From Candidatus Heimdallarchaeota archaeon (GTDB lineage Archaea; Asgardarchaeota; Heimdallarchaeia; Heimdallarchaeales; Heimdallarchaeaceae): DNA of 64,000 nucleotides. Shown here piece after piece: positions 3,461 through 4,597 of the stretch; positions within the stretch are counted from its first letter, which is position 1; every line of letters starts with the position of its first letter. The stretch spans positions 3,400 to 67,399 of the forward strand of contig JAHLWR010000019.1 of NCBI GenBank assembly GCA_019057815.1, written 5' to 3'. Both the position numbers and the translations under genes were made by a program. The notes under the pieces are model-generated. The model was not told the origin of the DNA. It was given only the letters and a program-made list of their open reading frames with translations, and ran no database searches.

Positions 3461-4597
3461 ATGGTAAGCTCACAAGCTGAACTTTACATCAAAATTGTCC
3501 AATTATCTATTATTTTTATTATTACATCATATTTTGTTTTTAGAAGAGTTAAAGATAAAATTATCGGATTTAACTGGTTCATTTTCATTTTTGGAATGGC
3601 GATAGTTCAATGTATCATAGAACTTGCACTTTATTTTCCAATGAAAAACAACCCAGAAGCCTTTGAAAATATAAGCTCAATACAAGAGATTCACATTATT
3701 CCATATGCTGCTGGATTGTTTGGGCTTTTTCTATATTGTGAGTTAATACGCAATTCTAAGCCTAATACTCTATTCTTCGGAATAACTACAGCTTTATTGG
3801 GAGGGTATATAGCCATCTATTTCATAGAACTTGGTTTCAATTTACAAAGTGCTTACCCTCCAGAATATAGAGTCAGTAGATTTTTCTTTAGCATTTTCCA
3901 AGCACTAGTACTTGCAGAAGCTCTTTACACATTCATACAAGATGCTATAAAAGTCGAACACAAGAAATTAAGAAATTTAAGCATTTTCATCTCTGTGGCT
4001 TTTTCAATAGCTTTTCTTTCAGCACTCTACAAAATTGTTGAACAATCTACATATTTGATAACAAAAACAGATCCAGCATTCCAAATTTATGGAGCGATAC
4101 CATTTTCTCTAACTTTCGGAATTATGGCAATAGTATTTATTTTCAACCCATTTTACGTTTATTTATTACCAACAGTCCTCAATAAAGTAATTGTTATCAA
4201 TGATGCTGGAATCCTGTTTTACTCTGTTAATATAGGTAAAGATATTCCTGATGATGAGTGTGAAGATGAACTGTTCTCTGGAATAGTAGCAGCCCTTAAA
4301 TCATTCCTTGAAGATACAACAGGGTCTACATCCGATCTCCGCAAAATAAGTTTCAGAGACAAGAAAATGATTATAGCTCAAAACAAGGAAAAAAGGGTTT
4401 CAACTATAATTCTTGGGGACAGTGATAGTTTCATACTTAATACAGCTGCACAACATTTTACAAATGCTTTCTGTGAAAAATTTGAGAAACATATAGAAAA
4501 ATTTGATGGGACTGTAGATATCTTTGAAGAGGCAACTAGCATTGTCAAACGAATCTTCCCTTTTGTTCCACCAGAAGAGATTATTGAGGCTAAGTAG
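3461..4597 (+). CDS. 7TM membrane protein with a C-terminal longin/roadblock-like alpha/beta domain
   Basis: Seven hydrophobic segments were counted by eye in residues 1-240. The C-terminal ~130 aa begins VIVINDAGILFYSVN, followed by helix DELFSGIVAALKSFLEDT and strands LRKISFRDKKMIIAQN and RVSTIILGD. It is a paralog of 12283..13365. Confidence 0.7.
   Translation: MVSSQAELYIKIVQLSIIFIITSYFVFRRVKDKIIGFNWFIFIFGMAIVQCIIELALYFPMKNNPEAFENISSIQEIHIIPYAAGLFGLFLYCELIRNSKPNTLFFGITTALLGGYIAIYFIELGFNLQSAYPPEYRVSRFFFSIFQALVLAEALYTFIQDAIKVEHKKLRNLSIFISVAFSIAFLSALYKIVEQSTYLITKTDPAFQIYGAIPFSLTFGIMAIVFIFNPFYVYLLPTVLNKVIVINDAGILFYSVNIGKDIPDDECEDELFSGIVAALKSFLEDTTGSTSDLRKISFRDKKMIIAQNKEKRVSTIILGDSDSFILNTAAQHFTNAFCEKFEKHIEKFDGTVDIFEEATSIVKRIFPFVPPEEIIEAK

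Follow-up and report, generated by a model that had tools for sequence, protein, structure and literature searches.

The stretch of DNA analysed here (64,000 nucleotides, hereafter the window) comes from contig JAHLWR010000019.1 of a Candidatus Heimdallarchaeota archaeon and encodes a protein of 378 residues in which seven transmembrane (TM) helices are followed by a domain that structure models and sequence profiles concordantly identify as a longin domain of the sybindin/sigma-adaptin type. Homologues of this 7TM-longin protein recur across the Asgard archaea. In eukaryotes the longin fold is a docking platform for trafficking GTPases. We tentatively propose that the window protein holds a platform of this kind at the membrane, where it might dock small GTPases or other longin-bearing proteins. 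The proposal draws on the predicted fold and on homologous domains that are joined to GTPases elsewhere in the same genome. The gene also lies between a Rab-like and an Arf-like GTPase gene, but the protein is not specifically wired to these two neighbours, and their proximity reflects local gene order.

Fold of the C-terminal domain and topology of the membrane part

The C-terminal domain was modelled with AlphaFold2 (AF2) on its own and as part of the whole protein. The domain-only model, built on an alignment of 22 divergent copies of the domain from the same genome, reached a pLDDT of 89.5 and a pTM of 0.85. It displays a five-stranded sheet between helices and the longin order of strands (b) and helices (a), b1-b2-a1-b3-b4-b5-a2-a3, with the elements at positions 9-16, 21-27, 38-56, 64-66, 71-77, 82-88, 93-109 and 122-134 of the model, respectively. 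The whole-protein model (21 homologues in the alignment; pLDDT 78.5, pTM 0.77) concurs and has strands at residues 240-247 and 252-258, a helix at 266-287, strands at 297-298, 301-308 and 313-319, and helices at 324-340 and 353-365. A preliminary description of the window, made from the letters alone, had read a longin- or roadblock-like pattern in this part of the protein, and the strands and the helix quoted there coincide with modelled elements.

The Foldseek comparison that the same description had suggested gave a clear answer: all top 50 matches of the domain-only model in the PDB belong to the longin/roadblock superfamily (13 of the 50 at E<=1e-3), and nearly all of them come from GTPase-regulating or coat complexes. 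The best were TRAPPC1/Bet5 (2j3t_C, E=7e-5) and Trs23 (3cue_A, E=1e-4), with TM-scores of 0.64-0.65, followed by AP sigma, LAMTOR subunits of Ragulator, bacterial Roadblock/LC7 proteins, MglB, Mon1-Ccz1 and COPI zeta. When the whole-protein model was used, the sigma subunits of AP-2, AP-1 and AP-3 ranked best in the PDB, and TRAPP Bet5, Trs23 and sedlin, SRX, COPI zeta and dynein LC7 appeared among the later matches. Sequence profiles point in the same direction. A profile of 40 diverse domain copies, run against the PDB, picked up Trs23, Bet5, TRAPPC1 and dynein roadblock (E 0.011-0.08), and these 40 relatives gave sub-threshold Pfam matches to Fuz_longin_1 (four, the best at 7e-5), Sybindin (four), Intu_longin_1 (three) and Robl_LC7 (three). 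The window protein itself, searched as such and with a profile of its close family, has no significant match in Pfam, NCBIfam or the PDB sequences; since no Pfam or NCBIfam model describes it, annotation pipelines call it hypothetical.

The absence of a helix before b1 and the presence of two helices after b5 argue for a longin rather than a roadblock topology. The Roadblock/LC7 family (PF03259; MglB, LAMTOR2/3), with its a-b-b-a-b-b-b topology, was rejected for these reasons, its Robl_LC7 matches being sub-threshold as well. The TRAPP subunits Bet5/TRAPPC1 and Trs23/TRAPPC4 (Sybindin-like, PF04099), which are the best matches by fold and by profile, share the order of secondary-structure elements with the window domain. 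However, they are soluble and belong to a Rab exchange factor of several subunits, whereas the window domain stands behind seven TM helices, and identity between them is 12-16%, with the Pfam model below threshold. Clathrin-adaptor sigma and COPI zeta subunits (Clat_adaptor_s, PF01217), the top whole-protein matches (TM-scores 0.63-0.75, normalised to the target), are soluble too; they work in heterotetrameric coats, and the window protein has no above-threshold sequence match to them. Longin SNAREs (Sec22, Ykt6, VAMP7) were considered and dismissed, as the parts stand in the reverse order with the TM bundle first, and neither the model nor Pfam gives a SNARE or coiled-coil segment.

The count of seven TM helices in the preliminary description was confirmed in two ways. 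A 19-residue Kyte-Doolittle scan gave seven hydrophobic segments (8-26, 39-57, 77-95, 104-122, 141-159, 175-193 and 209-227), which coincide with the seven long helices of the AF2 model (5-32, 37-63, 79-97, 103-126, 138-164, 168-201 and 212-228). By manual count, loops 1, 3 and 5 hold ten Lys/Arg residues and the N-terminus together with loops 2, 4 and 6 holds four, so that by the positive-inside rule the N-terminus is predicted to lie outside and the C-terminal domain in the cytoplasm; this also supplies the topology prediction that had been suggested. GPCR-type and prokaryotic 7TM receptors have the same seven-helix, N-out/C-in arrangement. Indeed, 7TMR-DISM_7TM (PF07695), HisKA_7TM (PF16927) and eukaryotic GPCRs carry a cytoplasmic output domain right after TM7, as is predicted here.

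The membrane part was nevertheless called receptor-like too early: the seven helices stand, but no known 7TM family was matched. Sequence and profile searches with this part gave no significant match in Pfam, NCBIfam or the PDB, and Foldseek returned only generic 7TM matches (E 0.2-1), namely to GPCRs, adiponectin receptors and channelrhodopsins. Several individual candidates were tried and rejected. 7TMR-DISM_7TM and HisKA_7TM each appeared as a lone weak match (E=0.012) in one of 13 members. A weak match of TM5-7 to ceramide synthase 6 (E=0.05) was lost when the profile was restricted to the TM part and drawn from wider relatives. TM7 has no Lys, in disagreement with a rhodopsin, and an enzyme of the PAQR/adiponectin-receptor kind is unlikely, since H78 is the only invariant His.

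The longin domain starts about ten residues past TM7. In the intervening linker, five residues (N229, P230, V233, Y234 and P237) do not vary across the close homologues, and P230 is the sole invariant column in the alignment of the TM domain. At the other end of the domain, the motif FPFVPPEE is better conserved than anything else in the wide family; its F366 is the sole invariant column in a wide full-length alignment that includes relatives at 17-31% identity. This segment could be a short docking motif.

Distribution and architectures in Asgard archaea

The close homologues (n=40, 46-96% identity) come exclusively from metagenome-assembled genomes of Heimdallarchaeia and are all annotated as hypothetical. 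A HMMER search of 1.84 billion cluster representatives yielded 284 matches at E<=1e-3, the named ones being from Kariarchaeaceae, Hodarchaeales, Heimdallarchaeota and, in one case, a protein labelled Odinarchaeota. A second homologue search with a wide profile returned mostly the same close set and one Odinarchaeota-labelled protein. With a profile of the full length, based on relatives at 17-31% identity, end-to-end matches were obtained in 246 genomes of a phylum-wide sample of 251 from Asgard archaea and in 62 of 63 genera, and most of the 251 genomes contain at least eight such matches each. Judged from these profile matches, the 7TM-longin architecture is old, phylum-wide and present in several copies per genome.

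In the 187 domain-bearing proteins compared, the domain is always C-terminal to the membrane segments, which again places it on the cytoplasmic side. By a crude hydropathy rule, most of these relatives have 5-8 predicted TM segments, and the TM modules range from 1 to 10 segments. The domain is also carried by stand-alone proteins of 130-220 residues and by proteins of 750-800 residues. In one protein from Hodarchaeales (P0168) the longin-type domain follows an MFS transporter, and giant proteins of 1092-2171 residues with CARDB/Ig-like domains (P0123, P0143, P0150) hold two or three copies of it.

It was already known that longin and roadblock families are expanded in Asgard archaea and fused there to GTPases. 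The preprint by Liu et al. gives 130 orthologous groups (asCOGs) in the Roadblock/LC7 superfamily, with many architectures restricted to Asgard archaea, and a 2026 preprint (PMC13734099) merely mentions '7TM proteins' among families reported earlier. We found no literature text on a 7TM-longin fusion; the asCOG tables lay outside this search, so that the fusion may have been catalogued before. New in the present work are the phylum-wide, multi-copy spread of the architecture, a high-confidence domain-only model, a negative test of the GTPase neighbourhood, and the homology to domains fused to GTPases in the same genome.

Relation to small GTPases and proposed function

The connection of the window protein to GTPases comes from other occurrences of its domain and not from the neighbourhood of its gene. 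A search of the genome with the domain profile gave 30 open reading frames (ORFs) at E<1e-5. Two of these encode Arf-like GTPases with the domain fused to the C-terminus (C35:12878-14898, E=4e-15; C40:65486-66436, E=4e-8; C numbers denote contigs), and a direct scan revealed two further Arf-like fusions (C8:61143-62087, E=2e-8; C43:22713-23693, E=6e-5). Moreover, a stand-alone, 144-residue copy of the domain is encoded 87 bp upstream of a gene for a 177-residue Ras-like GTPase, on the same strand. These two genes are part of a minus-strand cluster (C40:50077-55085) together with a 491-residue ORF and a 728-residue TPR-longin protein, whose domain is nearly identical to that of the 144-residue copy. 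Homologous domains are accordingly found both fused to GTPases (four cases) and encoded close to one (the 87-bp pair). Of the local arrangements, this cluster, which resembles a pairing of the MglB/MglA type, is the strongest candidate for a module of longin and GTPase. The domain stands at the C-terminus of about 15 further proteins of 600-750 residues, with TPR arrays in the two that were inspected, and one gene of this class adjoins a 7TM-longin gene in a genome of another family.

Asgard GTPases fused to longin and roadblock domains have been reported (bioRxiv 10.1101/2020.10.19.343400; Tran et al., 2024, PMC10933270), and PMC4917890 attributes such fusions to Klinger et al. (2016). In these Rag- and Arf-like fusions the longin-type domain is homologous to that of the window protein, as far as the four in-genome cases go, but the partner module is a GTPase and not a 7TM membrane domain. 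About ten Arf-like GTPases of 300-340 residues in this genome have a C-terminal extension, and four of the extensions match the longin profile. Four such Arf-like genes clustered at C36:111861-118100 show a weak profile match or none; their extensions may carry a different, roadblock-type domain.

Nearly all of the best structural relatives of the window domain pair with another longin/roadblock domain and present a surface to a small GTPase, and this habit makes a docking platform the most likely role. According to our proposal, the longin domain, held behind seven TM helices and a linker of about ten residues, would dock cytosolic partners at the membrane. The most plausible partners would be small GTPases or the many longin-bearing proteins that this genome encodes (fusions of Arf/Rag-like GTPases to longins, and TPR-longin proteins), and binding might proceed via longin-longin or longin-GTPase contacts, as in TRAPP, Ragulator-Rag, Mon1-Ccz1, SRX-SRbeta and MglB-MglA. 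In Ragulator-Rag and MglB-MglA, a roadblock/longin platform places or regulates a small GTPase at the membrane or the cell pole, and the fold search with the window domain retrieved chains of both LAMTOR and MglB. However, Ragulator is held at the membrane by lipidated LAMTOR1, whereas the window protein would be held by its TM helices; LAMTOR and MglB have the roadblock topology with an N-terminal helix, whereas the window domain is a predicted longin whose GTPase partner is putative. The protein could in this manner place GTPase modules at the membrane of an archaeon in which lipid-anchor signals are missing from the small GTPases. Lokiarchaeum was reported to be without CAAX signals and prenyltransferases (PMC4917890), and Asgard GTPase and roadblock proteins expressed in human cells did not reach membranes (PMC10933270). 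The tight linker might, in addition, let the state of the 7TM bundle influence the platform, any sensing by the bundle being putative.

A further-reaching version of this idea would make the 7TM-longin proteins the missing membrane receptors or anchors of Asgard small GTPases, with a conformational change in the bundle passing through a short, rigid linker to the longin platform and from there to GTPase recruitment or nucleotide state. We consider this unlikely, but if true it would represent an archaeal forerunner both of the coupling of receptors to G proteins and of the longin GTPase platforms on eukaryotic organelles.

Several observations weigh against a platform for GTPases. None of the Pfam longin models (Sybindin, Fuz_longin_1, Intu_longin_1, Clat_adaptor_s) reaches its curated threshold, and longin folds are part of a wider PAS/GAF-like group that can act without GTPases (PMC4917890). 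In the genome studied (3.74 Mb, 95% complete), which has 43 small-GTPase loci or one per 87 kb, 11.7% of the ORFs have a GTPase gene within 5 kb. Among the domain-bearing genes this is the case for 8 of 30 (p=0.02); with the two fusions removed, 6 of 28 remain (p=0.10). In other genomes, where GTPase genes were detected with a hidden Markov model (HMM) built from the GTPases of this genome, none of eight loci from three other families of the same order had a GTPase gene in the available flanks, and the 20 loci from other classes included two with a GTPase gene within 5 kb and three within about 9.4 kb. Outside Heimdallarchaeaceae, a GTPase gene within 5 kb was thus seen at 2 of 28 loci, against a background of about 12%. 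The preliminary description had named a lack of statistical linkage to GTPase genes as grounds for refutation, and the neighbourhood survey, which it had proposed, revealed neither an operon nor a statistical link. Its wider idea of a role in small-GTPase signalling survives on other grounds: the same domain occurs on Arf/Rag-like GTPases elsewhere in the genome and, as the stand-alone copy, beside a Ras-like GTPase gene.

The specific model of the preliminary description, in which the protein would be a receptor feeding into the Rab-like and Arf-like GTPases of the flanking genes at a distance of 2-3 kb, deserves separate consideration. Both GTPase genes are real, as the preliminary description had stated and the PF00071 and PF00025 matches corroborate, and both are close. 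Flanking of the 7TM gene on both sides is unusual, given that GTPase genes lie less than 3 kb away on both sides for only 0.26% of the ORFs of at least 120 residues, but it was noticed after the fact and this figure was computed post hoc. In genera g1, g4 and g5, moreover, an orthologous Arf gene is found within 3-8 kb. The strands differ, however, and there is no operon. In Heimdallarchaeaceae (12 loci from four genera, to be taken as non-independent samples because they belong to one family) the gene is embedded in a block of regulators, the 7TM-longin gene, sometimes a paralogue, an Ldh_2-family dehydrogenase, variable genes, an aldehyde:ferredoxin oxidoreductase (AFOR) with the Arf gene, a glyoxalase and a further 7TM-longin paralogue. 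Ldh_2 is kept in 12 of 12 loci. Wherever the Arf gene is present in these loci (ten cases), it adjoins AFOR on the same strand; the stretch between it and the 7TM gene measures 2 to 8 kb and differs in gene content, and one genus has no Arf gene at that position. Neither the Rab-like gene nor another GTPase gene was found upstream of the 7TM gene at the other loci examined. As the metabolic genes Ldh_2 and AFOR are at least as conserved as Arf, the block looks like inherited gene order, and with its Arf gene it is limited to Heimdallarchaeaceae, outside of which no linkage was seen. Signalling to the two flanking GTPases is, in our judgement, highly improbable.

More weight must be given to the possibility that the 7TM part is a transporter, a channel, an enzyme or a structural protein and that the longin domain serves it as a regulatory, ligand-binding or dimerisation module without any GTPase. 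The missing phylum-wide link to GTPase genes would be expected in this case, and the occurrence of the domain behind the MFS transporter and behind TM modules of such different size fits a general cassette, as does the place of longins within the multifunctional PAS/GAF superfamily (PMC4917890). On the other hand, fold and profile searches lead most closely to the longins of GTPase platforms and coats and not to PAS/GAF sensors, the domain is directly fused to Arf-like GTPases in the same genome, and no family of transporters or enzymes was matched by the 7TM part. We regard this explanation as rather unlikely, yet as one to be taken seriously. A role similar to that of coats or adaptors would imply that the protein, through its sigma-adaptin/zeta-COP-like domain, collects or sorts other membrane proteins or connects the membrane with scaffolds of the cytoskeletal or TPR kind while the nucleotide state of GTPases is left untouched. 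AP sigma, the N-terminal domain of AP mu and COPI zeta are indeed among the best fold matches, and the large domain-bearing proteins of 600-750 residues, with their TPR arrays in the two cases inspected and their one instance beside a 7TM-longin gene, would suit a scaffold. But no large adaptin-type subunits are linked to the 7TM-longin protein, and TRAPP-type longins score slightly above sigma-adaptins in both fold and profile searches; we hold this role to be improbable.

The membrane-held docking platform is of interest beyond this locus, since the Ras-, Rab- and Arf-like GTPases of Asgard archaea number in the dozens, and a longin built into a membrane protein in nearly all of the genomes searched, mostly in several copies, is an obvious candidate, open to testing, for the part of these GTPase systems that sits at the membrane. 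If it binds GTPases or GTPase-longin proteins, Asgard GTPase biology would be tied to the membrane. If it does not, the longin fold would have been widely used as a GTPase-independent, membrane-proximal module before eukaryotes arose.

Gene context within the window

The features of the window that bear on the 7TM-longin gene are compiled below.

Table. Features in and around the 7TM-longin gene (positions within the window)
Feature	Position	Strand	Basis
Rab/Ras-like small GTPase gene	165..755	+	PF00071, E=5e-45
Divergent pair: 117-residue protein resembling a winged helix-turn-helix (wHTH) and 240-residue membrane protein	2221..3293	-	ORFs; 9 loci each
TATA-box-like TTTATAAT	3430..3437	+	24-31 nt upstream of ATG, direct reading
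7TM-longin protein gene, 378 residues	3461..4597	+	ORF listing and translation
Seven-helix membrane domain, residues 5-228, N-terminus predicted outside	3473..4144	+	Hydropathy scan, AF2
Conserved linker from TM7 to longin, residues 229-239, NPFYVYLLPTV	4145..4177	+	Alignment of close homologues
Predicted cytoplasmic longin domain, residues 240-365, b1-b2-a1-b3-b4-b5-a2-a3	4178..4555	+	Domain-only AF2, Foldseek, profiles
C-terminal motif FPFVPPEE, residues 366-373, after last longin helix	4556..4579	+	Alignments
Ldh_2-family dehydrogenase gene, convergent with 7TM gene	4618..5775	-	PF02615, E=7e-116
Arf-like small GTPase gene	6629..7189	-	PF00025, E=3e-46, best Arf match of the genome
AFOR gene	7386-9581	-	
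Divergent 7TM-longin paralogue, 360 residues	12283..13365	-	C-domain HMM, E=3e-30; full-length profile, E=4e-46

The 7TM-longin gene appears from the arrangement of its neighbours to be transcribed alone. Its stop codon is separated by 20 bp from that of the convergent Ldh_2 gene, and upstream it shares an intergenic region of 167 bp with the divergent pair; the TATA-box-like element suggests that it probably has a promoter of its own and a short or absent leader. The divergent pair is the most regular upstream neighbour and is kept in genera g1 and g5 (9 loci), though not in g3 or g4. Neither of its products matches Pfam or NCBIfam; the 117-residue protein is wHTH-like by reading of its sequence, and the 240-residue membrane protein contains a run of 27 Thr. 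The conserved neighbours as a whole (regulators, Ldh_2, AFOR and glyoxalase, and at loci elsewhere a RusA-like protein and unknowns) are uninformative on function. A GC-rich intergenic island at 6296-6560 gave no Rfam match at gathering thresholds in a scan of positions 1-14000 of the window.

The Arf-like gene follows AFOR at a distance of 196 bp on the same strand, a constant pairing of a small GTPase with a tungsten-type oxidoreductase. The 360-residue paralogue is encoded 8 kb from the main gene, with a glyoxalase-family gene (11822-12238, minus strand) 45 bp downstream on the same strand, and this pair is retained in genera g3 and g4 (loci L035, L036 and L038). A third paralogue is present in the genome at C41:14509-15609.

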